NCBI GenBank assembly: GCA_039030295.1
Contig: JBCCEK010000003.1
Coordinates: 180 to 64,179 of the forward strand
Length of the DNA: 64,000 bases
DNA from: Myxococcota bacterium
Lineage (GTDB): Bacteria; Myxococcota_A; Polyangia; Polyangiales; Houyiibacteriaceae
Reading direction: 5' to 3'
Made by a program: the position numbers and the translations under genes. This document shows positions 13,079 to 53,593 of the stretch, in pieces. Position 1 is the stretch's first letter, and each line of letters opens with the position of its first letter. The notes below the pieces were generated by a model. The model saw only the letters and a program-made list of their open reading frames with translations. It made no database searches and was not told where the DNA came from.

Positions 13079-13197
13079 ACGGACCTCCAAACAACGAATC
13101 AGGGGTTCGACGAGCGTACACCCCACGGCCGGGTCGGCCAAGGGCGGAGATCGAGCGACCTTGCTCCAAGAGCCGCCCGTTGGGGCCGAACCGAGCT

Positions 13198-16056: not shown

Positions 16057-16208
16057 ACGGGCCTCGGGCTCGGATGCTACGTCACGGATAGAAGAATTTT
16101 GTTTGTAACCCGCGCCGGGGATGGGCATACGAAGCACAAAACAGATCGGTTTACTCAGAGTGAACCGGGGAACGCGGGGCAAGCCCGTACGATTCAAGGA
16201 GACTTCAC

Positions 16209-23352: not shown

Positions 23353-23391
23353 TGTTGCATCAGAGCAAAAGTGTTTACGATTTACAACAAT
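23351..23391. promoter_or_regulatory. AT-rich divergent promoter with inverted repeats (candidate LysR site)
   Basis: ATTGTTG (23351-23357) / CAACAAT (23385-23391), with a nested TTGC-N6-GCAA (23355-23368). Located between the LysR gene and the divergent lipoprotein gene. Confidence 0.3.
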
Positions 23392-23442
23392 TTTCATCAC
23401 GAAAGAAACAATCTAAGGTCAGCTCTTGCAAGGAGGACTGAT

Positions 23443-32120: not shown

Positions 32121-32180
32121 CGAAAAAGTTGGTAAATATGGAAAAAACGACATCTAGATATGCAATAATGAATAGCTAGA
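32121..32180. promoter_or_regulatory. AT-rich divergent promoter with TCTAG-N18-CTAGA inverted repeat
   Basis: A strongly AT-rich stretch in GC-rich DNA. Arms lie at 32153-32157 and 32176-32180, abutting the LysR ATG (32180). This is the usual place for LysR autoregulatory sites. Confidence 0.35.
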
Positions 32181-35943: not shown

Positions 35944-35944
35944 G

Positions 35945-37063
35945 CTACGTGCGGCGGACGGTGAGCTTGTCGGCCAGTTCCTCGAGCATTCCGAGCCCTT
36001 GCGGATTGAAGAGATCAGCACCTACTGCACAGCGAGCTTCGTCGCATAGCCCGGCAATCCTCAGCTCGAGTCGCTCAACGACCTCCGTTTCCCGGAGGCA
36101 TTGCTGTGCCAAGGCCAGCTCCTCGCTCGTGGCGTTGCGGTTCCCGAAGACCGACTCGACTGGCTGCCGAGTCGCCAGTTCGGTCGTGCTACGAAGCTCC
36201 GCCATGACACTGCTCAGCTTCCCGTGAGGGATGTCCATCCCGGGCTTGCCTGTGTCCTCCGCATCGCCGAGGGCTCCAAGCAGGTCGTCGCGGATCTGAA
36301 ACGCTTCGCCGATCGGGTTCGCCCAAGCGGTCAGTGCGGCGATCTGCTCCGCGGTCGGATTTCCGAGGAGTGCACCGAGGATGAGTGGACCTCTCACCGA
36401 GTAGCTGGTGGTCTTGAGGGCGTGCATTCGAGACACGTCTGGGTCGCCCGTGAGATCGAGTTGCTGACCGCAGTAGACCTGTTTTTGAAGCTCGATGAAG
36501 GCGCGCTGTGCGTCCGTCCACGATTGCATGGGAAAGGGCGCCTCGACGAAAAGCTCCCACGCATAGGTCGAAGCGAGGTCTCCCGCGAGAACGCCGAGTG
36601 CAGCGCCGAGATGCACGTCGTCGTGACGGTGTTGAAGACTCGCATGCACCGCCGCCCCTCCTCGACGTACTTCGTCTCCGTCCATCCAGTCGTCGTGGAT
36701 GAGCAGATAGCTCTGCAGCAGTTCGAGCGATGCGCTGAGGTCGACCAGTCGGTCCATCCCGTGCCCGGGACGGACGCATCGGTATCCGGCTGCGGCGACG
36801 GCAGGTCGGAGCCGCTTCCCGCCTCGCATGGTCAGCGCCTCGATCTCCTCCACCAACTCGAGCGTGGGCGGCGAGACGTTCTTCGTCTCACGGCGCTTGT
36901 CATCAAAGAACTCCGCAAGGTGCACGTCTACCTCGAGTCGCACGATCTGCAGCCAGTGCGTCGGTCGCGACCCGAGACGCGGGGAGTCCCCGGTCGATGC
37001 CGCGCGATCGAGTTCACGCTGGCGGTACTTGGGTACGACCTCGGTCAGTTGGGATGCTCTCAT
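35945..37063 (-). CDS. Polyprenyl diphosphate synthase, probable farnesyl diphosphate synthase
   Basis: First Asp-rich motif LLIHDDWMDGD, second FQIRDDLLG. Tyr lies five residues before the first motif. ATGA overlap with the cyclase stop. Confidence 0.8.
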   Translation of the reverse strand: MRASQLTEVVPKYRQRELDRAASTGDSPRLGSRPTHWLQIVRLEVDVHLAEFFDDKRRETKNVSPPTLELVEEIEALTMRGGKRLRPAVAAAGYRCVRPGHGMDRLVDLSASLELLQSYLLIHDDWMDGDEVRRGGAAVHASLQHRHDDVHLGAALGVLAGDLASTYAWELFVEAPFPMQSWTDAQRAFIELQKQVYCGQQLDLTGDPDVSRMHALKTTSYSVRGPLILGALLGNPTAEQIAALTAWANPIGEAFQIRDDLLGALGDAEDTGKPGMDIPHGKLSSVMAELRSTTELATRQPVESVFGNRNATSEELALAQQCLRETEVVERLELRIAGLCDEARCAVGADLFNPQGLGMLEELADKLTVRRT

Positions 37064-39036
37064 GACAGTCTCCGTGGGCTATCAGGACCTGCGTCCGCCC
37101 GGTGTTTGAGCGCGAGCGCCATGACCGGGAAGTACTGCCGGTACAGGCGGTAGTTGAGGAGGGCGGTCTCGAAGAAGACCCCCACGAATTCGTCGTCTCT
37201 CCAGAGGCCTGATGACTGCTGGCGTCGTTCAAGCCACGCGGCGGCCCTCTCGATGGCGTTCCGATCCGGTTCGTTGGCTTCGATGAGGGTGATCATCGCC
37301 CACGCGGTTTGAACCACCGAACCTTGCGACGCTTGCACGTAGCCCCGGCTCGGGCCGCTCGTGTAGTCCTCGCCCCAAGCGCCGTCGCTTCTTTGGTGTG
37401 AGAGGAGCCAACGGCAAGCATCGCGAACGTGAGCGTCGGTAGCGGGAACACCGGCTGCCAGCAACCCTCGAACGCCAAACATCGTCCCGTAGATGAAGTG
37501 CACGCCCCACGCGGCGTCCCAAGTGCCGTCGTTGTTCTGGACGCGTCGAAGAAGGTCACCTGCACGCGTGATCGCAGCGTCGAGGCGCACGCGCATGAGG
37601 TCCGGGTAGTGTCTTCGCAGGTCGCTTAGCGCCATCAGGCAAGAGGCCGTGCATTCGACGTACGAGCGCTCGGTCATGCAGCGTCCGAACATCTCAGCGG
37701 GGTTCATCCATTCGAGTGGGAATCGCGTCTTTGCGGGTTCGTAGCTTCCAAAACCCCCGTCGTGGTTCTGGCAGCGAAGGATGAAGCGTGCTGCCCTGGC
37801 GGCGTTCTCCTTGCCGATCGCCTCGGGCCGTGTCCGCAAGAGCCCGATCAACGCCTCGGCCGTGCAGTCGCTCACTGGCCAGCCGTGGCCGACTTCGGAG
37901 AAGCACCAACCGCCATTCGGTTGGATCCGATGGGCCGCCTCGTAGTCGTACGCTGCGGCGCCCACCTGTTGTGAGGCGAGGAACGCGGCGCTCCGCGAGA
38001 CGGACTCGCTGCAATCGACGTGCGCGACTTCCGAGAGCGCTTGGAGCGCGAACGCCGTGTCCCAACACACGCTTCCGGCTCCTGCGACGCGCGAGCCCTC
38101 GTTCGCGTCCTCCCAGAACCAATCTTCGAATCGGTCCGTCGCGCGCTCGAGGTGCGGGTCAGCCGGGTTCTCCGCCCACAGTGCCAGCATGATCAGAAGC
38201 CCGTTCACAGGCGAAAGACCGAGGTAATCGCTTGCGCGAAGATGGGCGCGCATGTCGGCGAGGAGACGTGTCGTGAGCGTACGGCGAAGCCGGCGCGAGT
38301 GAACTCGGTCGTAGCCGCGTGCGACGGCGAACACAGCGCGAAGCGCCGGCCCTGCCGCAAAGGGGGCGTCCTCAGGTCGAATGTCGTTGCGGTAGCGGGC
38401 GAATGAAACCCGAGCGAAGCGCCCCCCGTAGAGCTCGTTCTCGAGCTCGTCGACCACCGGCCCTCGCTCGGCGACGAAGCGCCTGCCGAACAGGACCGCG
38501 AGCCCAAGGTAGATCTGACGGGTGTGGCAGTAGTAGTTCGAAGGGTGCAGGGGCACCCACTCCGGGAGCGCCCACGCCTCGGGAACGATCGGGTTCACCC
38601 CGTCCCAGTCGTAGAGCCCAAGGGTCGCCAACCAGACTTTTCCCCAAGTCGGGATCCGCTCCACACGCTCTGAGGCGAAGAGGCGTCGCGCGTCTTCGAG
38701 CCAAGGCGTTTCGGCCGGGGCGCCCAGAATCCGTGCCGCGACGTACACCAACGTGGTCACGTAGAGGTTCCCGTCATCGTACGGGTGGAGCCCCCATAAA
38801 CCCGAGTCGTGCCGAGTGACCCTGAACTGGGTCAGGAGTCCCGCTCGTCGCTCATCACCAAGCTCCTGCTTCATGATGTGCGACGCGATCGCGTACTGGG
38901 CCGCGAGCATGGGGTTCCATACGCACTCGCCTTCCCAGCTCCCGTCGTCCCTTTGGAGGCGGATCAGCGCGTCGAGGCCTCGATCCAGAGGCGTCTGTGC
39001 GTGAATCGAAAGATGGGTTGTTGCCGCGGCAGGCAT
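37060..39036 (-). CDS. Oxidosqualene cyclase (lanosterol/cycloartenol synthase type)
   Basis: Catalytic GWPVSDCTAEAL (the OSC-type VxDCTAE, not the hopene-cyclase DxDDTA). WDTAFALQAL, and repeated QW-type motifs (e.g. RLQRDDGSWEG, RCQNHDGGFG, RVQNNDGTW, SHQRSDGAWGE). Start ATG 39036 lies 5 nt after the HMGR stop. The Arg-rich 217-aa ORF extension was rejected. Confidence 0.9.
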   Translation of the reverse strand: MPAAATTHLSIHAQTPLDRGLDALIRLQRDDGSWEGECVWNPMLAAQYAIASHIMKQELGDERRAGLLTQFRVTRHDSGLWGLHPYDDGNLYVTTLVYVAARILGAPAETPWLEDARRLFASERVERIPTWGKVWLATLGLYDWDGVNPIVPEAWALPEWVPLHPSNYYCHTRQIYLGLAVLFGRRFVAERGPVVDELENELYGGRFARVSFARYRNDIRPEDAPFAAGPALRAVFAVARGYDRVHSRRLRRTLTTRLLADMRAHLRASDYLGLSPVNGLLIMLALWAENPADPHLERATDRFEDWFWEDANEGSRVAGAGSVCWDTAFALQALSEVAHVDCSESVSRSAAFLASQQVGAAAYDYEAAHRIQPNGGWCFSEVGHGWPVSDCTAEALIGLLRTRPEAIGKENAARAARFILRCQNHDGGFGSYEPAKTRFPLEWMNPAEMFGRCMTERSYVECTASCLMALSDLRRHYPDLMRVRLDAAITRAGDLLRRVQNNDGTWDAAWGVHFIYGTMFGVRGLLAAGVPATDAHVRDACRWLLSHQRSDGAWGEDYTSGPSRGYVQASQGSVVQTAWAMITLIEANEPDRNAIERAAAWLERRQQSSGLWRDDEFVGVFFETALLNYRLYRQYFPVMALALKHRADAGPDSPRRLS

Positions 39037-39041
39037 CGGTC

Positions 39042-40250
39042 CTACTCCGCGGCGGCGATCTCGAATCGCCGTGCGTGCAGATTCATGTGCCCGCTCTGGA
39101 TCCCCTCGGACGCCAGTGCGGAGAGCGCGCCGAGGTTCTGCGCCAACCCCACGGCCGCCATCACCATCGCGAGCTCGCCTGCAGTGTCGACGTTGAGGAG
39201 CTTTCGGAGCACGCGAAGGGCGGGCTGGACCGAAGTAGACCCCCCGACTGTCCCCACGGCCATCGGTACTTCGATCTCGCCGTGGAGCATCCCGTCGACT
39301 TGCCACCAGCGTGTCAACGGTTCGTAGCGGCCGTGGCGGGCGGCGTAGGCGTGCGCGCCTGCTTCGAGCCCGCGCCAGTCGTTCCCGGTGGCGACGCCGA
39401 CCGCGTCGATCCCGTTCATGACGCCCTTGTTGTGCGTTGCCGCGCGGTAGGGGTCGACCGCCGCGAACTGATAGGCTTCGACGACCCCATGGGCAACTTC
39501 GGCGCCCGAGTGTCCGCGGCGTTCGAGAAGTTCTTCTTGAATCGCGCAGCTCGCCCGCGCCATTCGCCGATCGGACAGGTTGCTCAGGATCCGAAGACGC
39601 ACCCGGCCTCCCGTCAGCTCTTCGATGATCGGCGCGACGCCCTCGGCCATGTCGTTGACCAGGTTCGCGCCCATGGCGTCGCGGCAATCGACGAGCAGGT
39701 GAACGACCAGCATCGGCGGGTCTGAGTCGAGAATCCGCACTTCGAGCGACTTCGCGCCCCCGCGGCGCGCCACCATGTTGGGGTGACGGTCATTCGCGAC
39801 TTGCAGGATCCGGTCTGCCTGTCGTTCGATGGCATTGCGTGCTCCGAACGGGTCTGGCACTTCGAGAACCTGCACTTGCGCGATCATCAAGGACTCGCTC
39901 GCGGTCGCGGAGAAGCCACCCGACTCGCGGATCACACGGGCCATGTTGCTGGCCGCGGCGACTACCGAGGGTTCTTCGACGACCATCGGTACCACGTAGT
40001 CGCGCCCGTTGACCTGGAAGTTCAGCCCGAGACCCACGGGCATCTTGAGAACGCCGACGCAGTTTTCGACCATCTTGTCGGCGATCTCGGCGTCGGTCGG
40101 GTCTTCGCACCCGAGCGCAGCGAGGTCTTCTGGGTCTAGAGAGAAACGTTCCGCGAGTTGGTGATGGCGACCCGGAAGGTCAAGCCGATAGAACCCGGGA
40201 ATGCGAGAGGAGGGACGAAGCGGTGCGCGATGGCTTGCTCGATCGGTCAT
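39042..40250 (-). CDS. mvaA: HMG-CoA reductase, class II
   Basis: Near-colinear with the Pseudomonas mevalonii enzyme as recalled: VPMVVEEPSVVAAAS, DAMGAN, AAVDPYRAATHNKGVMNGIDAV, GLAQNLGALSALASEGIQSGHM. ATGA overlap with the squalene synthase stop. Confidence 0.95.
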   Translation of the reverse strand: MTDRASHRAPLRPSSRIPGFYRLDLPGRHHQLAERFSLDPEDLAALGCEDPTDAEIADKMVENCVGVLKMPVGLGLNFQVNGRDYVVPMVVEEPSVVAAASNMARVIRESGGFSATASESLMIAQVQVLEVPDPFGARNAIERQADRILQVANDRHPNMVARRGGAKSLEVRILDSDPPMLVVHLLVDCRDAMGANLVNDMAEGVAPIIEELTGGRVRLRILSNLSDRRMARASCAIQEELLERRGHSGAEVAHGVVEAYQFAAVDPYRAATHNKGVMNGIDAVGVATGNDWRGLEAGAHAYAARHGRYEPLTRWWQVDGMLHGEIEVPMAVGTVGGSTSVQPALRVLRKLLNVDTAGELAMVMAAVGLAQNLGALSALASEGIQSGHMNLHARRFEIAAAE

Positions 40251-41323
40251 GCGGCATCCATGGTGCGGGGCCCGCCGTTGGTGACCGAGTTGGCCGCCAT
40301 CAGTCGAGCGACAGGAGTCCAGAGCGACTCGTAGTCCGAGCGGAGGAGGGCATCGTCTTGGTAGCTCGCGGCGCACCGAGCGATGACCTCTTCCACTTCC
40401 GCGCGACTCACTTTGACTTCTTGGCCATCGGTGAACATCGCGTCGTTCCCGTAGGCGAGGACGACAGTCCTCACGGCGAGCCACAGAGGCAACAAGCAGA
40501 ACAGTCGGATCTCTCGATGCTCCGCCGGGATCGTCAGTGCGTACTCGAGCGCGCTGTCCAGTTTGGTGCGCGCGAGGTGGAACATCGGAAAGACCGCTCG
40601 ATGTGCAGCCGCGAGCTGATCGGGATCGAGAAGATCACGACTCCGCAGTCCTTGCTTTCGGCAAAGGGACCGAGGCACGAACGACCATCCGCGCTGCATG
40701 TCGTCGGTGATGTCTTTCAGGATGTTGACGAGCTGAAGGCCCGTACCGAACGCCTCGGCGTGCTCGTACAGCGCGGCAGACAGCTCCGATTCGGGTGACG
40801 TACCCATCTCGGCGAGGAAGAGCTCGGTCAGCATGTGACCCACCGTGCCTGCGACGAAGTAACAGTACCGTTGCAGATCGTCGCTCGTTGTTGGAGCGAC
40901 CACACCGTCGGCGTCGGCGCGTCGATGGCTGTAGATCTCCATCCCATGAGCCATCTCATCGACCCAACGAACCACGGCGTCGCGCATCGGGGCCGGCACG
41001 GTATCGAGAACGGCGATCACGCGATCGATTCGGCGGCACAGTTCGATCTCTTCGACTGGGGACCCGGCGACATCGTTCCATTGATGCCCAAACTCCGACG
41101 GATCGACCGTTCCGGCGAGCACGCCGTGGAACGCGCGGTAGCGCACACTTCGCTCGTCGAGAGAGAACGAGGCGTTGTCTTCGACCGCATCGACGATTCG
41201 GCAGAGCAGGTATCCGCACGTCACGGCCCTCCTCAGGTCTCCAGGTAGCACCTCGATCGGTCGGGAGAATGTCCGGGACACTTCCCGGAGACTGCCTGCG
41301 CAGAAGTCCCATTCAGCTGACAT
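40247..41323 (-). CDS. Squalene synthase (farnesyl-diphosphate farnesyltransferase)
   Basis: SRTFSRPI, YLLCRIVDAVED (DxxED), and NILKDITDDMQRGWSFVP (second Asp-rich box). Single-enzyme SQS type. Confidence 0.9.
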   Translation of the reverse strand: MSAEWDFCAGSLREVSRTFSRPIEVLPGDLRRAVTCGYLLCRIVDAVEDNASFSLDERSVRYRAFHGVLAGTVDPSEFGHQWNDVAGSPVEEIELCRRIDRVIAVLDTVPAPMRDAVVRWVDEMAHGMEIYSHRRADADGVVAPTTSDDLQRYCYFVAGTVGHMLTELFLAEMGTSPESELSAALYEHAEAFGTGLQLVNILKDITDDMQRGWSFVPRSLCRKQGLRSRDLLDPDQLAAAHRAVFPMFHLARTKLDSALEYALTIPAEHREIRLFCLLPLWLAVRTVVLAYGNDAMFTDGQEVKVSRAEVEEVIARCAASYQDDALLRSDYESLWTPVARLMAANSVTNGGPRTMDAA

Positions 41324-42692
41324 GCTTTTCCTCCTCGACGAAGACCTCAGTTGGGTCGTCAGGGCGTGCCCAGGATTCGGGTGCTGCCCACGACACCGAC
41401 CGTTGCCGCATCAAACTCTGGCTCGGGTGAACGCTCGCCCACGGCCACCGAAGCCAGCCCGCGAGCTCGCGCGCCGTGGCGGCGTCAGAAAGAAGCACCC
41501 CGGCGCCGGCTCGCAGTGCAACGCGTGAGAAGGCCCGAACGAAATCGACTCGGCTCGTCGTAGCCGCGCCAAGCAGATCCATGGTTCGGTTGCGTTGCAT
41601 CGAGCTCGCGCGCCAGGTGCTGAAAATCGAGTCGCGAATCGCGATCGCCCCCACGTCCTCGCGAGCAAACGCCTGGTAAATCGCGTTCGAGAGGAGTTCC
41701 GGCACGTAGCTTTCGGCAGCCCGCTGTGCGGCATACGAGCTCAGCGAGCGGGCTCCGGCGAGGGCCTCTGCATCGAGGAGCGACATCGTGATGCCCATGG
41801 CGGTGAGCGGGTGGAACACCCCGGCCGCATCGCCGACGAGCGCCACCCCGCGGTCGGTTTGGTAGCGTCGCGGGCGGAACGTATTCGCGGCCCATCCGAT
41901 CGACGCATCTCCGGCGCCGCGACGGACGCCTTCGCGGAGCGCAGGTGGGAGCACCTCCGCGTACGACTTCCAGATCCAATCGTGGCTCTTCGTGCTTGCG
42001 CGCGCATCGTGCGGAACGTCGATGCACATCCGTACGGCGTTGTCCCCGATGCGATAGGCCAGCGCCGGCCCTGGTCCGCCCGTGATCACATGCCCGTACT
42101 CTTCGAAAGGAAGTTCGGTATCGCGCACGACCAGTCCGGCCATGACCGAGATCGAAACCTTCTCGCTGACTGCACCATCACCGAGGATCTTGCGCGCCGA
42201 GCGCCCCGTTGCGATGACGACGAGAGGTGCGTTGACCACGCGCGACTTAGACCTCTGAGTCAGCGTCACGAAGCGGCCCCGGACCTCGCTCGCGCGCACC
42301 CCTTCGAGATAGTCGACGCCTCTCGTCTGACTCACGCGCGCGCGCAGATGGGTCACCAAGGTTGCGTGTTCGCAGGAGAGACCGCGCTCGCCGCCGCCAT
42401 ACTCGAGGGTGATCGGACCGAGGCCATCGTTTGGAAACACGACGAAGCCGCGCCCGGTAGCGCCGTGCTCCAGTCCATCTAAAAGTTCGAGATTACGAAG
42501 GATTCTAGCCCCTTCGGGATGCACCCACTCCCCAGCGAAGCGCCGCGCTGCGTTCGGGTTCGACTCGACCAGGAGAACGCTCGCACCTCGCCGAGCGAAC
42601 GCCGCGGCGGTTGCGCAGCCCGCCGGTCCTGCACCGATAACCACGGTGTCGTACGCCGATCGAATGTCGCCCAAGTCGAACGTTGGCTGCAC
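41313..42692 (-). CDS. Squalene monooxygenase (epoxidase), FAD-dependent
   Basis: DTVVIGAGPAGCATA dinucleotide fold, GEWVHPEG, LVGDAAGVFHPLTAMGITMSLLDA. GTG start. Overlaps the SQS start by 11 nt. Confidence 0.85.
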   Translation of the reverse strand: MQPTFDLGDIRSAYDTVVIGAGPAGCATAAAFARRGASVLLVESNPNAARRFAGEWVHPEGARILRNLELLDGLEHGATGRGFVVFPNDGLGPITLEYGGGERGLSCEHATLVTHLRARVSQTRGVDYLEGVRASEVRGRFVTLTQRSKSRVVNAPLVVIATGRSARKILGDGAVSEKVSISVMAGLVVRDTELPFEEYGHVITGGPGPALAYRIGDNAVRMCIDVPHDARASTKSHDWIWKSYAEVLPPALREGVRRGAGDASIGWAANTFRPRRYQTDRGVALVGDAAGVFHPLTAMGITMSLLDAEALAGARSLSSYAAQRAAESYVPELLSNAIYQAFAREDVGAIAIRDSIFSTWRASSMQRNRTMDLLGAATTSRVDFVRAFSRVALRAGAGVLLSDAATARELAGWLRWPWASVHPSQSLMRQRSVSWAAPESWARPDDPTEVFVEEEKHVS

Positions 42693-43014
42693 GGTTTCCC
42701 CTGGCGCTTAGTATTCGCGCGCCGCGTCCGGCAGCTACAAGATTCGCTTCGGTGGATCGAACGTTGGTGTCGATCGTCCCAAAGCGCGCACGAACGGTTT
42801 GACAACTTCCCAATCTTTACAGCGTGTTGCGTTGCTGTACGTAGACGGATCAGCTTTACAATGCGTTGGCTATCGTGCTGTTGATCACGGTTCAATGATC
42901 GCTGCGGACCGCTGGCGAGATCTCACGAACGAGTCACACGTTTCTCGCGCTGCCAGTTACCGCGCGCGCTACAAACAATCGCGTCACATCGTCTCAAAGA
43001 GGAGAACACGTGAA
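42693..43014. promoter_or_regulatory. Divergent control region between the squalene-epoxidase operon and the HMG-CoA-synthase operon
   Basis: The only sizeable non-coding gap in the module. Exact 11-mer TCGAACGTTGG at 42676-42686 and 42757-42767. GATCGA-N9-TCGATC at 42755-42775. TTGACA at 42799-42804. Two CTTTACA..GCGTTG..TGCTGT units at 42815-42838 and 42854-42881. SD AAGAGGAG lies 10 nt before ATG 43015. Confidence 0.4.
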
Positions 43015-44112
43015 ATGAGCGCGAACCCTGCAGGCATTGCATCCATTGGTCTTCAACTTCCCAGGCTCTTCATGCCGGTGACAGAGCTCGCTGATCTTCG
43101 TGGGGTCGATCCGAACAAGTTTACAAAGGGTTTAGGCTGCGGTGAGATCGCACTTTGCGATCCCGACGAAGACGCCGTCACCTTGGCCGTTGGCGCTGCG
43201 AAACGTGCCCTCTCGCGTTGGGACGGGCTTGCCGAAGACATCGGGCTCATCGTTGTGGGCACGGAGAGTGCGAAGGACATGAGCCGTCCGCTCAGTGCTT
43301 GGGTCGCCGAGGAGCTCGGCCTCTCTGGGGGGATCCGGTCCTACGAAGTGAAGCACGCGTGCTATGGCGGAACGCTCGCGTTACGCCAGGCGCTCGAGTG
43401 GAAATGGTCGGGCGCTTCTGCAGGCAAGGCGGCGCTCGTGATCGCTTCCGACGTCGCTTTGTACTCGCTTCAAGATCCGGGCGAGCCCACGCAGGGCGCC
43501 GGGGCGGTCGCGATGATCGTAGACGAACCCCTCGTCGCACGCATCGAGAACCGCTCCTATCCGTTCAGCAGCCCGGCGTTCGACTTCTGGCGCCCGGTCG
43601 GCGATCCGTTCCCGTCCGTTGAAGGGCAGCTTAGCCTCGACTGCTACAAGCGCGCGGTCGAGGAGTGTTACGGCGCGATGGTGGGCGACCGAGATGCGCG
43701 CGCTGTCCTCGGGGCCTTCGAGGCGATGGCGTTCCACGTCCCGTTCCCGAAGATGGTCAAGAAGGCGGTCCTCCACCTGGCCGAGCAGCTCGGGTGGACC
43801 GAAGCCGAGGGTGAGGCGCTTTACGCGGAGAAGGTCGACTCGACCATGGCGTGGAACCGTTCGGTTGGAAACGCCTACACGGCGAGCCTTTGGATCTCGG
43901 TTGCCGGCACGCTCTCGGGTATGGCGGAGGGCACCCGCATGACGGCGCTCTCCTACGGATCCGGCTACGGCGCCGAGCTCCTCGAGCTGGTCGCAGGCCC
44001 TGCTGCCTCGGCTGGTGCGTGGGCAACCGACATCGAGCAGGATCTCCGTCAGCGCCGCCTGGTCGACAAAGCGACTTATGAATCTCTTCGGGGTCATGCA
44101 CGCGCGAGCTGA
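43015..44112 (+). CDS. mvaS: HMG-CoA synthase
   Basis: VGTESAKDMSRP, and the catalytic-Cys context EVKHACYGGT. Start moved to ATG 43015, which has a strong SD. Confidence 0.9.
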   Translation: MSANPAGIASIGLQLPRLFMPVTELADLRGVDPNKFTKGLGCGEIALCDPDEDAVTLAVGAAKRALSRWDGLAEDIGLIVVGTESAKDMSRPLSAWVAEELGLSGGIRSYEVKHACYGGTLALRQALEWKWSGASAGKAALVIASDVALYSLQDPGEPTQGAGAVAMIVDEPLVARIENRSYPFSSPAFDFWRPVGDPFPSVEGQLSLDCYKRAVEECYGAMVGDRDARAVLGAFEAMAFHVPFPKMVKKAVLHLAEQLGWTEAEGEALYAEKVDSTMAWNRSVGNAYTASLWISVAGTLSGMAEGTRMTALSYGSGYGAELLELVAGPAASAGAWATDIEQDLRQRRLVDKATYESLRGHARAS

Positions 44113-45187
44113 GGGCCCTCGGGCGCCGTCGGATGCGGCCCTCGGTGCTCGCAAGGCCGACCACCTCGATCTCTGCGAAGGAGACGCGGTCGCATTCCGA
44201 TCGAAGACGACTCTCCTCGAGGGCGTCCGGTTTCTCCACCAGTCTCTCCCCGAGTTGGCGTCAAACGAAGTCTCCACGGAGACGCAACTCCTAGGGCGCA
44301 CGCTACGCGCTCCTATCGTGATCGCCGCGATGACCGGCGGACACGAGCGCGCGGCGTCGATCAATCGCGGGTTGGCGGCGATCGCGGAGCAGCGGGGAAT
44401 CGGCCTCGGGCTTGGAAGCCAGCGTGCCATGCAGCGGGACCCGTCGATGGAATGGACCTACAGTGTTCGCGAGTGGGCGCCGAACATCCTGCTCCTCGGG
44501 AACATTGGCGTCGTGCAGGCCCGCGAGACGCCGACACGCGACATCGAAGGGTTGGTACGCGACGTCGGGGCCGATGCGTTGTGTGTGCATCTGAATCCGG
44601 CGATGGAGCTCATTCAGTCCGATGGTGACCGCGACTTCCGCGGCTGTGTGGACGCATTGAAGCGACTCTCGAACGAGCTCTCGGTTCCGGTCGTGGCGAA
44701 GGAAACCGGGAACGGGCTCAGTCCCCAAACCATCGCAAAGCTCGTTGAGGCGGGTATTCGGTACGTCGATACGTCGGGTGCGGGTGGAACCTCGTGGGTC
44801 GGGGTCGAGACGCTGCGGGCCGACGGCGTTCGGCGCACGATCGGAGACAGCCTCTGGGACTGGGGCATCCCGACCGCTCCCTCGATCCACTATGCGCGTC
44901 AGGCCAACATGACCACGATCGCCACGGGCGGCGTCCGTTCGGGTCACGACGTCGCCCGCGCGTTGGCACTCGGGGCGTCGGCCGCAGGCATTGCGCGACC
45001 GGTGTTGCAGTCGCTCCAGCAAGGCGGCGAGGAGGGTGCACTCACGTTCATCGACGGTATCGTGGAGGAGCTCCGCGCAGTCATGCTGCTGACAGGCTCG
45101 GCGACCCCGGCGGCGCTTCGCGAGGCACCGAGAATCATCTCCGGTGAGCTCGATCGCTGGATGGGCGCGGCGGGCCCAACGCCATGA
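44096..45187 (+). CDS. fni: Isopentenyl-diphosphate delta-isomerase, type 2 (FMN-dependent)
   Basis: RKADHLDL, APIVIAAMTGG, VVAKETGNG, SGAGGTSW, GGVRSGHDVA. Start ATG 44096 overlaps the HMGS 3' end (alternative 44078). Confidence 0.9.
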   Translation: MHARAEGPRAPSDAALGARKADHLDLCEGDAVAFRSKTTLLEGVRFLHQSLPELASNEVSTETQLLGRTLRAPIVIAAMTGGHERAASINRGLAAIAEQRGIGLGLGSQRAMQRDPSMEWTYSVREWAPNILLLGNIGVVQARETPTRDIEGLVRDVGADALCVHLNPAMELIQSDGDRDFRGCVDALKRLSNELSVPVVAKETGNGLSPQTIAKLVEAGIRYVDTSGAGGTSWVGVETLRADGVRRTIGDSLWDWGIPTAPSIHYARQANMTTIATGGVRSGHDVARALALGASAAGIARPVLQSLQQGGEEGALTFIDGIVEELRAVMLLTGSATPAALREAPRIISGELDRWMGAAGPTP

Positions 45188-45909
45188 CGCTGCGGGCCAT
45201 CGTCGTCGACGGTGAGCCACCCGCCCGGCAGGAGCTATCGTTCCTCCTTGGGCAGTGCGACGGCGTCGAGGTCGTCGGTCGTGCGGCGGTGCCCGTCGAA
45301 GCGGAACGTCTTTGCGACGAGGTCGACCCACACGTGGCGTTCATCGATCTTCGCATGCCCGGAACCGACGGCCTCTCGTTGGCCAACGCGCTTCGTCGCC
45401 GCCATCTCGAGCTCGATGTCGTGATCGTCTCGGCCCACGATGAAGGGGCGATCCGTGGATTCGACCTTCAGATCGCGGACTACCTCCTCAAGCCGGTGAG
45501 CCTCGAGCGGCTGCGCCGCACACTCAGACACCTCGAAGACAGCCGATCCGACGCGCGCAGCCCGTTTCCGATCGAACGCTTCGCGGTACGTCGCAAGAAC
45601 GCCTATGTGGTCCTCGACCTGAAGGACGTGATCTACTTCGAGGCGCGCGACGACCTGGTTTGGGCGGTGACCGCTGACGATCGATTCGCCATCGATCGCA
45701 CGCTGGCGAGTCTGGCCGAGCACCTCGACGGCGAAGACTTTTTTCAGTCGCACCGAGGCTGCATCGTTCGGCTCGACAAGATCCGGGTGATCGAGCCTTG
45801 CGGCGCCCGCACCTTCAGGATCGTCGTCGATCACCCGGAGAGCCCCTCCGTGCCGCTCGCACGCGATCGGGTAGGCAAGCTGAGAGAACGAATTCCGTTC
45901 CTTCGCTAA
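45184..45909 (+). CDS. LytR/AlgR-family response regulator (REC + LytTR DNA-binding domain)
   Basis: REC domain with the acceptor context VAFIDLRMPGTDG. The C-terminal LytTR pattern is VVLDLKDVIYFEARDDLVWAVT...FFQSHRGCIVRLDKI. ATGA overlap with the fni stop. Confidence 0.9.
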   Translation: MTLRAIVVDGEPPARQELSFLLGQCDGVEVVGRAAVPVEAERLCDEVDPHVAFIDLRMPGTDGLSLANALRRRHLELDVVIVSAHDEGAIRGFDLQIADYLLKPVSLERLRRTLRHLEDSRSDARSPFPIERFAVRRKNAYVVLDLKDVIYFEARDDLVWAVTADDRFAIDRTLASLAEHLDGEDFFQSHRGCIVRLDKIRVIEPCGARTFRIVVDHPESPSVPLARDRVGKLRERIPFLR

Positions 45910-45918
45910 CGCACCGGC

Positions 45919-46950
45919 TCAGGCGGGTCGCTGGGCGACGAAGAAGTAGTTCGGCGTGAAGATTCCGAGCTCTCCGCCGGCGATCAACGACTCGGCGGCG
46001 TTCCCAAGCATCCGGCTGACTTCGGTCGAGCCCGGAGGCGCGATCCGAAGCCGCTCGAGGGTACGAATCGTCCGGCGTGCGATCGCACGACCGACACGCC
46101 CGCGCCGGATGGCGATCGGATTGCTGAGCTCGCCCTTGAGCGGCAAGTACCAAGGCGTCCGCGCATCGGACCTCGTTGCCGCGTCGTGGCTTTCGACGAT
46201 CTCGAAGCCGGCCTCGCGGAGTGCTTCGAGAACCTCTGGGACGGTCGCAATGTCGGGCAGGCTGTCGCCCTCTTCGATGCCCTTCTTGATCTTCTGGTGA
46301 TGCGCATTCGTGGGGTCGAAGGCGTCCGTCATGCACCACTCATACGCGGCGAACTTGCCACCCGGCTTGAGAGTCCTGAGGATCTGCTTGAACACGGCGA
46401 CCTTGTCCGGGGCATGGCACGTCGCCTCGAATGCGTACGCGGCGTCGTACGTCTCGTCAGCGACACCGAGGTTCATGAAATCGTCTTTGAACCCAGAGCA
46501 CTGGCCGGCGAGCCCGGCTTTCTGGTTGTACTGCTCGAGCTTGGTCAGCTGGTAGTCGTTGTTGTTCACGCCTTCGATCGTGGCACCCGAGAAGCGCGCG
46601 ATGGCCCGCATGGGCCCACCGACCCCGCAGCCCACGTCGAGGACCTTCATGCCCTCGTTGAGCCCCAGTCGGAGCGCAAAGAAATGCTCGGAGCGAGCCA
46701 AGGACGCATCGAACGATTCACCGTCGAAGCGGGGTGCGAAGTGAAAGGACTGGCCCCAGCCGTGCTCGTAGAAATCGGTGACCAGATCGTAGTAGTGATT
46801 GATCATGGTCGTGTAGTCGGCCTTGCGCGTCTCGACGTTCGCGCCTGACGACTCGTCGAAGAAACCGAGGTAGTCGCGAATGGCGCCGCGGACGGTGCTG
46901 CGCGTCCGCGCGTCGGAGTAGAATTGCGTTACGGCTTGCTCTTGAGTCAT
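45919..46950 (-). CDS. Sterol C-24 methyltransferase (ERG6/SMT family)
   Basis: YYDLVTDFYEHGWGQSFHFA (SMT region I), VLDVGCGVGGP (SAM site), YAFEATCHAP (region III), 343 aa. Confidence 0.9.
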   Translation of the reverse strand: MTQEQAVTQFYSDARTRSTVRGAIRDYLGFFDESSGANVETRKADYTTMINHYYDLVTDFYEHGWGQSFHFAPRFDGESFDASLARSEHFFALRLGLNEGMKVLDVGCGVGGPMRAIARFSGATIEGVNNNDYQLTKLEQYNQKAGLAGQCSGFKDDFMNLGVADETYDAAYAFEATCHAPDKVAVFKQILRTLKPGGKFAAYEWCMTDAFDPTNAHHQKIKKGIEEGDSLPDIATVPEVLEALREAGFEIVESHDAATRSDARTPWYLPLKGELSNPIAIRRGRVGRAIARRTIRTLERLRIAPPGSTEVSRMLGNAAESLIAGGELGIFTPNYFFVAQRPA

Positions 46951-47181
46951 CGATATCCCCTACAAACGAATGAAACTTTGCAGTCCGTTACCACACGCGA
47001 GGAGAGGGACAACGAGCGTTTGACCGATCTCGCGGGTCCCGGAGGTCCGAGATCCGGACCCCTTAACCGTTCGGCCCACTCCGAGGACCTCTCATTGCGG
47101 CGACTCGACCCTTGACCGCCGTTCAGCCGGCACCGCGGGCAGCCTCACTTTTTTCTTTTCTGTGTCAGTATCCGCCGTTCG

Positions 47182-48534
47182 ATGGCCGACGGCGAAACCA
47201 AACTCGGGACTTTCTCGACCCTTTCCATCGGGATCGGGGGCATGGTGGGTGGGGGGATCTTCGCGGTGACGGGCCTCACTGTCCAGGTCACCAAAGGGGC
47301 CGCCCCGATCGCGTTTCTGATCGCAGGCATCGTGGCACTCCTCACGAGCTACTCGTATCTCAAACTCACACTCCGATATCCCGGCGAGGGAGGCACCGTC
47401 TCGTTCCTCAACCAGGCTTTCGGAGGCGGAGTGCTGACCGGCTCGGCCAACATCTTGCTCCTCCTGAGCTACGTCGTGCTTCTGGCCGTGTACGCGTACG
47501 CGTTCGGGAGCTACGGCGCGAGCTTCTTTCCGAAAGAGGAGCGTACCCTGTGGCTTCATGTGCTGATCAGCGCGGTGATCATCGGGCTGGTGGTCATCAA
47601 CGTGTTCGGCACGCAGCTGGTGATTCGATCGGAGAACTTTTTCAACGTCGTCAAGATGCTGCTTCTTGCAGTGTTCGTGGTGTGGGGGCTTGCGACGCCG
47701 ATGACCTGGAACCGGCTGGCACCTGCCGAGTTCGTTTCGCCGGTCTCACTCGTTGCGGGCGCCATGCTGATCTTCTTGAACTACGAGGGCTTCGAGCTCA
47801 TCGCGAATGCGTCCAAGGACGTGGCCGATCCCAAACGTTCTCTTCCGATTGCATACATCGGGGGAGTCTTGTTGGTCATGGTGCTCTACGTGTTGATCGT
47901 TACCGTTGTCGTCGGGCATATGACGTTTGCCGACGTCGAGAAGACACGCGACTACGCGCTGTCGGTTGCGGCGGAGACGTTCATGGGACGCCCCGGCTAC
48001 GTGGGTATCGCCGTGGCCGCGCTCATGGCCACCAGCTCCGCGATCAACGCGACATTCTACAGCACGGGCCGACTGACTTACATCATCGCGAAGAGCGGTC
48101 AGCTACCGCGCGAGCTCGAGCGGGAGCTCCGAGGCGAGCACCTCGAGGGCACCATCATCACTGCGGGGTTGGCGTTGCTGATCGCGAACGCGATCCCCCT
48201 TGATGCGATCGCGACCATGGGCAGCGCAGGCTTTCTCTTGATCTTCGTCGCGGTGAACGTCGCCAACGTACGCCTCGCGAAGGAGACCAACAGTCGCGCC
48301 TGGCTGTCTGGAATCGCGGCCCTGACCACAACCGCGGCGCTCATCGTGTTGTGTATCGAGATAGGCTCCAAACCCGAGACTAGGAACCAGTTGTGGATCC
48401 TCGCGGCGATGGTTGCCGTCTCGTTCGGCGTCGAAATGGCCTACCGAAAGAGCACGGGTCGCCACATCTCTCTAGTATCTCGTGGTACTTCCGAGACCCA
48501 GGCGCCTGTCCTTGGTGCCGGCCCTGAAGACTGA
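47182..48534 (+). CDS. APC-superfamily amino acid permease
   Basis: 450 aa with about 12 TM segments. The N-terminal LSIGIGGMVGGGIF is typical of APC transporters. Confidence 0.85.
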   Translation: MADGETKLGTFSTLSIGIGGMVGGGIFAVTGLTVQVTKGAAPIAFLIAGIVALLTSYSYLKLTLRYPGEGGTVSFLNQAFGGGVLTGSANILLLLSYVVLLAVYAYAFGSYGASFFPKEERTLWLHVLISAVIIGLVVINVFGTQLVIRSENFFNVVKMLLLAVFVVWGLATPMTWNRLAPAEFVSPVSLVAGAMLIFLNYEGFELIANASKDVADPKRSLPIAYIGGVLLVMVLYVLIVTVVVGHMTFADVEKTRDYALSVAAETFMGRPGYVGIAVAALMATSSAINATFYSTGRLTYIIAKSGQLPRELERELRGEHLEGTIITAGLALLIANAIPLDAIATMGSAGFLLIFVAVNVANVRLAKETNSRAWLSGIAALTTTAALIVLCIEIGSKPETRNQLWILAAMVAVSFGVEMAYRKSTGRHISLVSRGTSETQAPVLGAGPED

Positions 48535-48545
48535 GGAGAAGAAGC

Positions 48546-50048
48546 GTGTTCAAGGACTACCCCGACTACGACGGCATCGGTCTCGCCGACCTCATGAAAC
48601 GGAAGGAAGTATCCCCCGCCGAAGTGATGGAGGCGGCGATCGCGCGCACGGAGGCGCTCAATCCCAAGTTGAACGCGATCGTCACACCCCTCTACGATCG
48701 CGCCAAGAGGGACGACCTGCCCGACGGCGCAGGCCCCCTCGCCAACGTCCCTTTCCTCTTGAAGGACGTGCACCACGCGCTCGAGGGAACCCCGATGAGC
48801 AACGGGAGTGCGCTTCAGCAGGGAGAAGTCTCGACGCGCAACGCGACGATCGTCGACCGTTGGCTTCGGGCCGGCCTGCGGGTTTTCGGAAAGACCAACA
48901 CGCCCGAGTACAAGCTGACGCCAACCACCAACCCCAAGATTTTTGGCGCCACCCGCAACCCTTGGGACCTCGAACGAACGCCTGGCGGCTCGAGTGGTGG
49001 ATCGGCGGCTGCGGTTGCGGCACGACTCGCACCGCTCGCTTCCGGCACGGACGAGGCTGGCTCGATCCGAACGCCATCGGCCAACTGCGGGGTGTTTGGG
49101 CTCAAACCTTCCCGCGGTCGAAACCCGATTGGCCCCGATTTTCGCTGGGAGCTCGGCGGCTGCTCGACTTCGCACGTCATCAGTCGAAGCGTCCGCGACA
49201 GTGCGGCCGCGCTCGACGCGACTCACGGGCCCGAACTTGGCGGACCGTATCATTGCCCCATCGGCGGGGGGTTCCTCGAAGCGCTGCAGGAGCCCCCGAG
49301 CACGCTCCGCGTGGCCGTCGATACCGGGACGAGTTACTTCGGACGTCCCATGGAGCCAAGCTGCGTGGCTGCGGTCGAACAGGCCGCCAAGATACTTGAA
49401 CGCCTGGGCCATCACGTCGAGCTCGTGCCACTTCCGTTTGATGAATCGGAGGCACTCTGGCTATCGGTCATCTTGATCGCGACGAGCTTCGCCGGGTTCG
49501 TCGACGAGCTCGTAGATGAGTACGACCTCGCGCGCGTGAAACGCGGTATCGAGCCGCTCAACTATTTCATCTGGAAAGCTGGGCACGCGGTTCCTTCGCA
49601 GATCACCGAGCGTGCCCGTCTTCAACGCCACGAGCTCGCTCGGTCGCTCGCCGAGTTCCACACCCGCTACGACGTTCTTGTCACATCGACGATGTGTTGC
49701 GCACCGAGGCTGATCGAGGAAACCGAGCCTTCGTCCGCCGACATCAAGCTCGCGACGGTCCTCGCGTCGGGGTTGCTACGGCCCCTGGGTGCCGTGCCCG
49801 GTGTTATCGAGCGCATCATCGATGCGCAGATCGACAGCTTGATCTCGCGCGTCCCGTATCGCACAGCGCTCGCGAGCGTCACGGGGCAGCCGGCGATGTC
49901 GGTTCCGCTTCATTGGACCGACGAGGGGCTTCCTGTTGGGGTTCAGTTTCTTGGGGGTTTCGGAAGCGAGCGCATGTTGCTTCAGTTGGCGTCCCAGCTC
50001 GAGTCGGCCCACCCGTGGGCGTCCAAGCGACCTTCGCATGCGTCCTGA
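48546..50048 (+). CDS. Amidase (amidase-signature family)
   Basis: [45 protein letters not shown] signature. GTG start. Confidence 0.9.
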
Positions 50049-50107
50049 GCCTCGCGTTCGTCCCCATCGGGGACCGTGCTAGGGTGCGCGCCCTCGGAGG
50101 ACCACGC

Positions 50108-51112
50108 ATGGGAACAAAACCGACTGGCCTACTCGCGTTCTGGCGAAACTACGATCGTAAGACCTACGTCAAGGCGGCGGTACTTGCCGATCGCCTCGGA
50201 TACGACTCGTTCTGGCTTCCCGAGGTCTGGGGCTACGAGTCGTTCACGCTTCTCACCGAGATCGCTTTGAAGACGAAGCGCATCAAGTTGGGCACCGGCA
50301 TCATCAACGTGTTCAGTCGGTCGCCCGCCCTGATCGCCATGCAGGCGGCCACCCTGGACGAGGTCAGCGGCGGAAGGTTCATTCTCGGGGTCGGCACGAG
50401 CGGCAAGCGCGTGATCGAAGGGCTTCACGGACGTGACTTCGAGAAACCACTCACGCAGACGCGAGACGTCATACGAGTCGTCAAGACGCTCCTTGACGGA
50501 CGGCCCATTTCGGAGTCCGACGCGAAGCTCCGGCACTACCGACCGTTCAAGCTCGACTTCGAGCCAAGGCGAAGAAAGATCCCGATCTATGTAGCGGCGC
50601 TTAAGCAGAAATCGGTCACGAGTATCGGGGAACTTGCCGACGGGTGGATGCCGATCTTCTGGCCGTACGATCGTCTCGAAGACGGACGGGCTTGGATCGC
50701 CGATGGGGCTGCCAAGTCTGGGCGAGATCCGGCGGAGATCGTGACCGCGCCCTTCACGACGGTCATCCCTGTGCCGGGCCGCGGCGCCTCGAAGAAGGCA
50801 CGCGAAATTATCGCGTTCTACATCGGCGGCATGGGTGAGTACTATAAGGAGCTGCTCACCGGCTTCGGCTACGGTGAGGAGTGTAACGAAGTCGAGCGGC
50901 TGTACCGTGACAAGTCGACTCGAGCGCAGGCTCTTGACGCGGTGACCGACGAGATGGTCGAACGACTGACGATCTCAGGCGATCCCCTCCACTGCCGCAA
51001 AGAGCTCGGGAGACGGCGCGGGCTTGGTCTGCAAGAGCCGATCATCAACTTACCGCCAGGCATCCCGTGGCCGGCGATGGCCGCCTTCATTACATCGCTT
51101 GCGCGGGCCTGA
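50108..51112 (+). CDS. Luciferase-like (LLM class) flavin/F420-dependent oxidoreductase
   Basis: [20 protein letters not shown]...[18 protein letters not shown]...[11 protein letters not shown]. Start moved to ATG 50108. Confidence 0.8.
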
Positions 51113-51149
51113 CGACTCCACAGCCGACAAGTTGGTGTATGCTGCACCC

Positions 51150-52088
51150 ATGTCTCCCGTCGAGGCGCCCTTCGCGAAGGGGTGGTACATGGTTTGCTGG
51201 AGCAACGACCTCGAGCGAGGCGCGACCTTGCCGCTCCGTTACTTCGCCAAGGACTTCGTGTTGTTCCGAGGGGAGAGTGGCCGCGCCACACTCCTCGACG
51301 CGCATTGCCCGCACCTCGGTGCGCACCTCGGTCACGGAGGCTGTGTCAAGGGTGACGATATCGTTTGCCCGTTTCATGCGTGGCGGTTCTCGCCCGAAGG
51401 TCGCTGTATCGAGGTCCCCTACGCGAGCCGCATTCCACCGAAAGCAGCCCTCCGGCAGTATCCGGTTTCGGAACACAGCGGGATGATCTTTGCCTACTTC
51501 GATGAAGAGGGGGTCGTCCCCGACTACGAAGTACCGCCGATTCACGAGCTGGACGATCCCAACTGGACTCCGCTCGAGATGAGTGAGATCCAGATCGCCA
51601 CCCAGCCGCGTGAGGTCATCGAGAACGTCGCGGACGTTGCGCACTTTGGCCCGGTTCACCACCAGACGATCGATGAGTTCGAGATGATCATCGATGGGCC
51701 AAGGGCCACTCAGAGAACGATTGGCAGAGGGGGGACGCTCGACGGGAGACCGATACCGGTCGAGTCGGTCGCGACCTATCACGGACCGGCCGTGCAATTC
51801 ACGAGGCTGATGTGGGCCTACGACATGGTCCTGGTGAACGCCCATGTGCCCATCGACCACGAGGCGCTCGTCCTTCGGTTCGGCGTGACGCTCCGCAAAC
51901 GAGCGGGCGAGAACGCGGGGCGTGACGTGATTCTGCAGCACGTCGCGGCAGCGCGCGACGGTTACTTCCAAGATGTCGCCATCTGGGAGCACAAGCGATG
52001 GCGCGATCGACCCACCCTCGTTGAGGGAGACGGGCCGATCGGCGAGATCCGGAAGTGGTACCGGTCATTTTTCGCTGAAGCATCTTGA
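51150..52088 (+). CDS. Rieske [2Fe-2S] non-haem-iron oxygenase (KshA/Neverland/SdmA-like single-component alpha subunit)
   Basis: Rieske CPHLGAHLGHG...CPFHAWRF. Mononuclear iron motif ENVADVAHFGPVHH (E-x3-D-x2-H-x4-H). Start moved to ATG 51150. Confidence 0.85.
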   Translation: MSPVEAPFAKGWYMVCWSNDLERGATLPLRYFAKDFVLFRGESGRATLLDAHCPHLGAHLGHGGCVKGDDIVCPFHAWRFSPEGRCIEVPYASRIPPKAALRQYPVSEHSGMIFAYFDEEGVVPDYEVPPIHELDDPNWTPLEMSEIQIATQPREVIENVADVAHFGPVHHQTIDEFEMIIDGPRATQRTIGRGGTLDGRPIPVESVATYHGPAVQFTRLMWAYDMVLVNAHVPIDHEALVLRFGVTLRKRAGENAGRDVILQHVAAARDGYFQDVAIWEHKRWRDRPTLVEGDGPIGEIRKWYRSFFAEAS

Positions 52089-53478: not shown

Positions 53479-53529
53479 CGAGCACACGGTCGGGTTGCAG
53501 GACTCTCGATCTCGCTTCTATTCGTTATA

Positions 53530-53542
53530 TTACAATTTGTAA
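53530..53542. promoter_or_regulatory. Palindrome TTACAA-T-TTGTAA in an AT-rich patch upstream of the P450
   Basis: Located 52-64 nt upstream of the P450 ATG, inside ttctattcgttatattacaatttgtaaagttaaag, the most AT-rich stretch of this region. Confidence 0.35.
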
Positions 53543-53593
53543 AGTTAAAGCGTCGCCGAGCTTTCCCGCGTGTTTTTGGACGGAGTAAGTGGT

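Follow-up and report, generated by a model that had tools for sequence, protein, structure and literature searches.

The question raised by this locus is why a two-component response regulator should be encoded at the end of an operon for mevalonate-pathway enzymes, and what it might regulate there. The gene (45184-45909, + strand) lies in a stretch of 64,000 nucleotides from a Myxococcota bacterium, referred to here as the window, directly behind the genes for HMG-CoA synthase (HMGS) and type-2 isopentenyl-diphosphate isomerase (IDI2). Its product, which combines a receiver (REC) domain with a LytTR DNA-binding domain, is called RR below. An earlier note on this DNA had described RR as a phospho-dependent orphan regulator, and had suggested that it controls sterol or isoprenoid flux. 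In uncultured, largely marine Myxococcota, the HMGS-IDI2 operon has RR as its last conserved gene. On phylogenetic grounds, RR descends by duplication from the regulator of a canonical LytS/LytT pair, the copy having been captured by this operon. The best-supported reading, which is held tentatively and at slightly less than an even chance, is that RR autoregulates and controls the divergent promoter of the surrounding mevalonate and sterol supercluster, with input from an unlinked LytS-type kinase.

RR was called as an open reading frame (ORF) of 241 amino acids with an ATG start. Pfam scans identified the receiver domain (Response_reg, PF00072, residues 6-114, E 3.6e-18) and the LytTR domain (PF04397, residues 141-237, E 1.1e-17), and an AlphaFold2 (AF2) model with an input of 17 orthologues had a mean pLDDT of 83. 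The best structural match of this model was full-length ComE (4CBV; Foldseek E 9e-12). The receiver half had the (beta/alpha)5 layout and was matched by REC structures at TM 0.8-0.9, and the LytTR half matched 3D6W at TM 0.85 with an rmsd of 1.8 Å. The same structure was the sole match when the LytTR domain alone was used in a PDB sequence search (E 8e-4). The best full-length NCBIfam match was BtsR (NF008677), with a score of 113.5 bits that falls far below the equivalog cut-off of 246 bits. RR is thus an AlgR/LytT-type transcription factor and an ordinary member of its family. An antisense ORF opposite the gene (45235-45834) was set aside as a high-GC artefact.

The first gene of the operon encodes HMGS (43015-44112, + strand, 365 amino acids; assigned from Pfam and homologues) and is preceded by a ribosome-binding site, AGGAG, at 43000-43004. 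Its end overlaps by 17 nucleotides the start of the IDI2 gene (44096-45187, + strand, 363 amino acids), for which the start at 44096 is the likely one, placed from the homologous gene calls in the related loci L001 and L002. The assignment of IDI2 was clear, with 372 bits against the TIGR02151 cut-off of 281. The TGA of IDI2 (45185-45187) overlaps the ATG of RR (45184-45186) in the sequence 'ccATGAcg', confirming the ATGA junction at 45184-45187 (+ strand) that had been pointed out before. A 4-nucleotide stop/start overlap of this kind is the commonest operon junction and is unremarkable alone. As the RR start is also preceded by a weak Shine-Dalgarno sequence, the overlap suggests that translation of RR depends on translation of IDI2. 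A strict scan of 42500-47300 found no sigma-70-like promoter. The scan for terminator-like hairpins in the same interval returned seven against 3.2 expected, none of which lies between the operon genes: they were placed inside IDI2 (44563-44576 on the + strand and two on the - strand) and inside the downstream sterol methyltransferase (SMT) gene (46503-46519 on the + strand and three on the - strand). The view in the earlier note that RR belongs with HMGS and IDI2 is therefore supported, by the common strand and the overlaps, in the form of a single predicted operon-like unit.

In order to assess the conservation of this linkage, the neighbourhoods of relatives were inspected and species-representative genomes were scanned; matches were sorted by tblastn, and all genome counts given here are among the matches listed. 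Full-length relatives of RR with 60-95% identity numbered in the hundreds, all from Myxococcota metagenomes or metagenome-assembled genomes (MAGs), whereas a look-up of the exact RR sequence gave no record. The idi-LytTR linkage, which the earlier note had proposed to look for in related genomes, was conserved as HMGS-IDI2-RR in at least eight distinct Myxococcota sequences, with an RR identity to the window of 63-95%. These eight sterol-linked sequences are the window, L001/L006, L002/L003, L007, L008, L009, L010 and L011. The overlap between IDI2 and RR was kept as ATGA or GTGA in all eight loci. The wider arrangement, with FPP synthase (FPPS), oxidosqualene cyclase (OSC), HMG-CoA reductase (HMGR), squalene synthase (SQS) and squalene epoxidase (SQE) in the order FPPS-OSC-HMGR-SQS-SQE<>HMGS-IDI2-RR, where <> marks divergent transcription, was invariant in the window, L001, L002, L007, L009, L010 and L011, and on the short contig L008 HMGS-IDI2-RR was visible. 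L008 (CAXMND010000201.1), with its myxobacterial HMGS-IDI2-RR, sits in a MAG labelled 'uncultured Coxiellaceae bacterium', probably as a result of a binning error.

The genes 3' of RR varied by lineage, and included SMT, an amino-acid permease, a beta-lactamase-fold protein, acyl-CoA dehydrogenases and unknowns. Identity to the window at the four-fold degenerate sites of HMGS and RR was 0.32-0.45, which corresponds to saturation, and the shared gene order has consequently been maintained by selection. In relatives with the layout FPPS-MVK-MDD-PMK<>IDI2 (IDI2 approximately 64% identical), no RR was present after IDI2. This supports a linkage that is specific to the cluster type seen in the window.

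The next-closest regulators (60-63% identity; L004, L012-L025, L038 and L039) directly follow the gene of a 409-amino-acid kinase, with recorded domains 5TM-5TMR_LYT, His_kinase and HATPase_c, and are themselves followed by the gene of an NlpE_C/META lipoprotein. More distant myxobacterial relatives of RR (37-57%) are likewise located behind a LytS-type kinase. By neighbour-joining, monophyly of the sterol-linked RRs (n=8) was recovered in 198 of 200 bootstraps and that of the LytS+NlpE-linked RRs in 200 of 200; the two clades were sisters in 175 of 200, both being nested among LytS-linked RRs. Furthermore, the long-read MAG CAVWBW01 contained a sterol-linked RR (L011) as well as a LytS-RR-NlpE operon (L021). 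This position in the tree, together with the two copies in one MAG, identifies RR as a relocated paralogue, an orphan by position and not by ancestry. The word 'orphan' in the earlier note accordingly holds for the absence of a kinase nearby, and fails for descent, RR being a paralogue of LytS-paired regulators.

A comparison of the two copies is informative about what may have changed. The kinase-docking helix alpha-1 of the L011 RR differs from that of the L021 RR at one position, L21M. The LytTR domain has several fixed differences between the two clades (FFQSHR vs FFRSHR, GARTFR vs GAGTYQ, EAR vs EVK and IPFLR vs IPFSG), and these substitutions suggest a change in DNA specificity. The simplest reading is that the kinase input was retained and the DNA-site output was altered in the sterol-linked RR. 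The paralogy with LytS-paired regulators and the presence of both copies in one genome point to a candidate: the kinase most likely to phosphorylate RR is the LytS-type enzyme of the parental operon. The LytS-type kinase/LytTR RR/NlpE_C/META operon (L004 8775-11560; L012-L025, L038, L039) shows conserved promoter elements of its own, and might serve in the response to envelope stress.

As stated in the earlier note, no histidine kinase was detected in the window: none of the approximately 60 window ORFs scanned with Pfam contained a HisKA, His_kinase or HATPase_c domain, tblastn of the window with a LytS-type kinase gave no match, and two purpose-built kinase HMMs matched their positive controls only. 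The eight sterol-linked loci, the window among them, likewise had no kinase gene within 10 kb. In the phosphorylation pocket of RR, the phospho-acceptor D55, at the end of beta-3 in 'AFIDLRMPG', was invariant in all aligned relatives, and S83 (beta-4, 'VIVSAH'), the switch aromatic Y100 and K103 ('DYLLKP', beta-5) were present. The acidic pocket after beta-1, which corresponds to D12/D13 of CheY, is formed by D9-G10 ('VVDGEP'), codon 10 being GGT at 45211-45213. Other relatives have a DD pair here, or DE in one case, and Gly was confined to the window and L001, its 95% relative. Established receiver biochemistry assigns to CheY D13, the equivalent of position 10, the coordination of the Mg2+ on which phosphoryl transfer depends. 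Among the 120 best protein clusters, 69 had the sterol-type signature, and of these 59 read DDEP and one DGEP, with nine unreadable. The prevalence of DDEP (59/69) indicates selection for phosphorylation in the family, which looks phosphorylation-dependent. For the RR of the window itself, phosphorylation may be impaired or altered by D10G. The description of RR as phospho-dependent thus fits the family, with its DDE motif, D55, S83 and K103, and fits less well the RR of the window, with Gly at the second acidic Asp.

These observations bear on an alternative in which RR has no dedicated kinase and acts independently of phosphorylation or is driven by acetyl phosphate, so that its output would follow its abundance, as set by transcription of HMGS-IDI2, and/or the acetyl-CoA/acetyl phosphate pool from which the mevalonate pathway is fed, the target still being the supercluster promoter. 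The lack of a kinase gene within 10 kb in all eight sterol-linked loci, the change at the Mg2+-binding position (CheY D13) in the lineage of the window, and the predicted translational coupling, which would link the dosage of RR to the operon, would all be concordant with it. Precedents are available as well. AlgR has both phosphorylation-dependent and phosphorylation-independent outputs; it autophosphorylates with acetyl or carbamoyl phosphate and is phosphorylation-independent at algD (PMC4064291), and Staphylococcus aureus LytR is reported to bypass LytS by means of acetyl phosphate (PMC4830213). However, the rest of the clade keeps the full DD/D/S/K pocket, which is unexpected for a phosphorylation-independent protein; D10G, in one of the 69 sterol-type clusters, is a recent exception; and the nearly unchanged helix alpha-1, compared with the LytS-paired paralogue, argues that the kinase interaction was maintained. 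We consider a regulator without a dedicated kinase unlikely.

A second candidate for the input is encoded further along the window. A MASE11 membrane protein of 292 amino acids (53594-54472, - strand; Pfam and alignment), 100% identical to NCBI AAF436_00905, is located directly upstream of a P450 gene (52114-53487). Its full-length homologues are MASE11-HisKA-HATPase_c kinases, 51-53% identical in the alignment (53-56% by BLASTP) over 93-95% of its length. Full kinases occur at the same position, in the order EF-G/DHHA1/EF-G-paralogue/kinase followed by P450 and FA_hydroxylase; full-kinase orthologues stand beside P450 in L086, L087 and L092-L094, and the kinase of L091 has no following P450 match. 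The protein in the window aligns with these kinases through the DHp region, has Glu in place of the phospho-His of 'GGLAHDFNN' and has no catalytic domain. On this alignment it is a degenerate, kinase-dead sensor derived from a histidine kinase, and it may sense the state of the membrane or its sterols. Such a protein might be the partner of RR, by phosphorylating it in the complete form or by sequestering it in the degenerate form, according to membrane or sterol state.

The proximity of the two genes (7.7 kb in the window, and within one cluster in L001 and L002), the fact that the complete orthologues beside P450 have no adjacent RR, and the retention in the window of homology through DHp, the RR-docking surface, are in its favour. 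The partnership was nevertheless downgraded, because PVMK01184993.1, the sole genome in which both loci could be examined, has a full kinase and no RR after IDI2, and because truncated forms of MASE11 turn up in unrelated, non-sterol contexts as well. In addition, L002 combines a truncated sensor with an RR whose DD pocket is intact, so the two genes did not degenerate together, and LytTR regulators normally pair with LytS- or AgrC-type kinases and not with the HisKA type. We regard MASE11 as a highly improbable partner, and return to the reading in which RR is served by the unlinked LytS-type kinase. An EF-G gene (57448-59538, + strand) lies near the MASE11/P450 locus. Two EF-G copies flank DHHA1 in L086, L087 and L091-L094; the identities of those copies to the EF-G of the window were approximately 90% (65% in L086) and approximately 32%.

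The candidate target of RR is the 322-bp intergenic region between the divergent SQE and HMGS genes (42693-43014), in which the alignment of the eight sequences revealed dense conserved blocks. Its identity to the window was 0.54-0.71 (0.90 for L001), compared with 0.32-0.45 (0.60-0.65 for L001) at the four-fold sites of the flanking genes, and 173 of its 322 positions were conserved in at least 75% of the sequences. By this comparison the region is under strong constraint. A direct repeat, CTTTACAnnGnGTTG, is present in two copies with a 39-bp period (42815-42829 and 42854-42868, + strand), is conserved across loci and had two matches in the whole window against 0.09 expected. Box 1, CGCACGAACG (42787-42796, + strand), and box 2, CTCACGAACG (42922-42931, + strand), a direct copy 135 bp away, share the pattern CxCACGAACG. 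Box 2 is approximately 40-50 bp upstream of a conserved TACAAA (42970-42975), tentatively the -10 element of HMGS; the SQE operon might have its -10 at 42711-16 and its -35 at 42735-40. These assignments are tentative because the strict sigma-70 scan was empty. Further conserved blocks are a CGATCG palindrome and TGTTGATCnCnGTTCAAnGA (42879-42898, + strand), the latter found only in the sterol-linked loci among 104 fetched loci. The CTTTACA repeat, the TGTTGATC block and the TCGATCGTCCCAA block were, in the same 104 loci, essentially restricted to sterol-linked ones. It is plausible that 42693-43014 is both the target of RR and its autoregulatory promoter region.

A resemblance to AlgR sites was also considered. 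The reverse complement of box 1 contains the AlgR-site-like CCGTTCGTG, and CACGAACGG, which reads CCGTTCGTG on the other strand, agrees with the AlgR consensus at 8 of 9 positions. This was rejected as statistical evidence, as near-matches are at or below chance in the GC-rich window; CACGAACGR occurred 6 times against 3.2 expected. Of the box evidence, cross-species conservation alone counts. The earlier note had also proposed 46951-47181 and 53488-53593 for binding tests. These regions were set aside: no conserved 11-mer of 42693-43014 recurred in either at up to one mismatch. The spacer between the divergent SMT and permease genes could be aligned only to the 95%-related L001.

Several results weigh against the control of this promoter by RR and a LytS-type kinase, and are gathered here. 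AlgR-like 9-mers with at most one mismatch numbered 28 in the window where 49 were expected, which is not above chance. The classic LytTR layout consists of 9-bp repeats approximately 21 bp apart, and the box spacings in the intergenic region, of approximately 39 and 135 bp, are unlike it. The conserved boxes could be attributed equally to RNA polymerase or to other regulators, such as the two LysR proteins, the TetR protein and the ECF sigma factor encoded in the window. None of the sterol-region boxes was found in the promoters of the parental LytS operons or in the RR-NlpE spacer and, given the clade-specific LytTR substitutions, DNA sites would not be transferable from the paralogue. On the input side, the RR of the window lacks the second acidic Asp (D10G), and a LytS kinase alongside a sterol-linked RR was seen in one genome among the matches listed, the MAGs being mostly fragmentary.

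The same promoter evidence leads to another alternative, that RR is a co-expressed passenger with targets elsewhere, for example in envelope, lipid or transport genes, and links expression of the pathway to another regulon. Consistent with this, no motif assignable to RR was found in the cluster, the parental paralogue is accompanied by an NlpE-like envelope lipoprotein and not by isoprenoid genes, and in L002 RR is followed on the same strand by genes for an amino-acid permease, an amidase, a luciferase-like monooxygenase and a Rieske oxygenase. However, the overlapping start directly after IDI2 was kept in eight lineages despite the changing genes downstream, the promoter region nearby is exceptionally conserved, and regulators inside biosynthetic clusters usually act on those clusters. 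A passenger role is therefore judged doubtful, and control of the SQE<>HMGS region is preferred.

In the explanation proposed here, in which we infer the DNA target, the direction of regulation, the kinase and the signal, the RR gene was duplicated from a LytS-type kinase/RR/NlpE-like lipoprotein operon and recruited to the end of the HMGS-IDI2 operon. RR would be made from the HMGS-IDI2 mRNA, would bind the conserved boxes of the 322-bp region, and would from there control both halves of the supercluster as well as its own synthesis. D55 of RR would be phosphorylated by the LytS-type membrane kinase that is encoded, unlinked, in the parental operon, one kinase thus serving two regulators, and expression of the sterol and isoprenoid genes would in this way respond to the state of the membrane or envelope. 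Where D10G is present, as in the window and its lineage, it may weaken or remove Mg2+-dependent phosphorylation, and the activity of RR may rest more on its abundance. The control of sterol or isoprenoid flux put forward in the earlier note is likewise a putative role of RR.

The nearest known systems differ from this one in instructive ways. AlgZ(FimS)/AlgR of Pseudomonas aeruginosa has a regulator with the same REC+LytTR architecture as RR, and AlgR is paired, like the parental paralogue, with a short polytopic LytS/His_kinase (PF06580) kinase. AlgR binds single 9-bp sites, CCGTTCGTC, that lie tens to hundreds of bp apart in either orientation (PMC4064291), and in the window a distance of 135 bp separates the two conserved CGTTCGTG-type boxes. 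In contrast to AlgR, the RR of the window has no adjacent kinase and its sterol and mevalonate context is unrelated to alginate or pili; relatives from the beta- and gamma-proteobacterial genera Aquitalea, Dyella and Rhodanobacter, which are not necessarily AlgR orthologues, are only 34-37% identical to RR. BtsS/BtsR (YehU/YehT), YpdA/YpdB and S. aureus LytSR share their LytS-type sensor architecture with the sister-clade kinase, and differ in that the RR copy in the window is unlinked from a kinase. The targets of these systems are pyruvate transporters or lrgAB, and not biosynthetic operons.

ComE of Streptococcus pneumoniae (4CBV) is the closest solved full-length REC+LytTR structure, with an identity to RR of 14-15%. 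Its kinase partner is the AgrC-like ComD, and its binding sites are 9-bp direct repeats approximately 21 bp apart, a layout that is absent from 42693-43014. The orphan regulator paralogues of branched two-component pathways are likewise duplicates away from their kinase, and the window-type RRs resemble them in having kept the family pocket and helix alpha-1; here, the two paralogues would share a kinase, and the LytTR changes suggest a new regulon. The eukaryotic SREBP-SCAP system offers a conceptual analogy, in that one factor would control HMGS, HMGR, SQS, SQE and the cyclase, possibly via a membrane sensor; it has no homology to RR and sterol sensing is not implied.

The genes around the operon define the setting in which RR would act. 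The array at 33055-42692 (- strand), transcribed divergently from HMGS-IDI2-RR, encodes by Pfam SQE, SQS, HMGR, OSC, FPPS, mevalonate kinase, diphosphomevalonate decarboxylase and a GHMP kinase, and its gene order was the same in L001, L002 and L007-L011. By gene content the region is a merged mevalonate and sterol supercluster. Downstream of RR are a convergent SMT gene and genes for an amino-acid permease, an amidase and a luciferase-like monooxygenase, followed by an SdmA-like Rieske oxygenase, the P450, the MASE11 protein and an ERG2-like protein. The permease, amidase and luciferase-like monooxygenase genes (47182-52088, + strand) are wedged between RR/SMT and the SdmA-like Rieske oxygenase, and this set is conserved in L001 and L002. 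The ERG2/Sigma-1-receptor-like protein (56642-57304, + strand; PF04622, E 5e-52) is a candidate sterol C-8 isomerase. Its gene adjoins DHHA1, fumarylacetoacetase-family and EF-G genes, and the ERG2, DHHA1 and EF-G neighbours recur in L086. A wax-ester synthase/DGAT with a C-terminal SCP2 sterol-carrier domain (11309-13141, - strand) could be a steryl-ester synthase, and a 3-beta-HSD/epimerase-family gene and an RPE65-type carotenoid oxygenase gene (4358-5437 and 27188-28639, both + strand) may add lipid-modifying functions. The other regulators of the window are the two LysR proteins, the TetR protein and the ECF sigma factor (32180-33058 +, 22459-23400 -, 15466-16197 - and 10393-11286 +), one LysR gene ending convergently with the mevalonate array, whose last gene it overlaps by 4 nucleotides at the 3' end. 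These regulators could also act on the cluster.

Full-text literature searches found no paper linking LytTR or any response regulator to bacterial sterol or mevalonate clusters, in agreement with the statement in the earlier note that LytTR control is uncharacterised for bacterial sterol synthesis. The same searches found nothing on the regulation of bacterial sterol synthesis or its signals, and regulators are not discussed in the main papers on myxobacterial sterol clusters. RR would be the first concrete candidate for a regulator of sterol synthesis in bacteria. The novelty lies in the setting of RR and in its capture as a paralogue, rather than in the protein family; if its targets prove to be elsewhere, the finding would become that of an ordinary orphan LytTR regulator. 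A dedicated circuit for sterol and membrane homeostasis, in which a polytopic membrane sensor (the LytS-type kinase and/or the MASE11 kinase or pseudo-kinase beside the P450) monitors the membrane or its sterols, acts through the LytTR regulator and feeds back on the divergent HMGS/IDI and SQE-SQS-HMGR-OSC promoter, is very unlikely on the present evidence; if it existed, these bacteria would possess a functional counterpart of SREBP-type feedback on sterol synthesis. For these Myxococcota, the analysis supplies a regulator conserved with the supercluster, a named candidate kinase family and a hyper-conserved 322-bp promoter region with discrete boxes, and it offers a clean case in which a biosynthetic operon has captured a paralogous response regulator.

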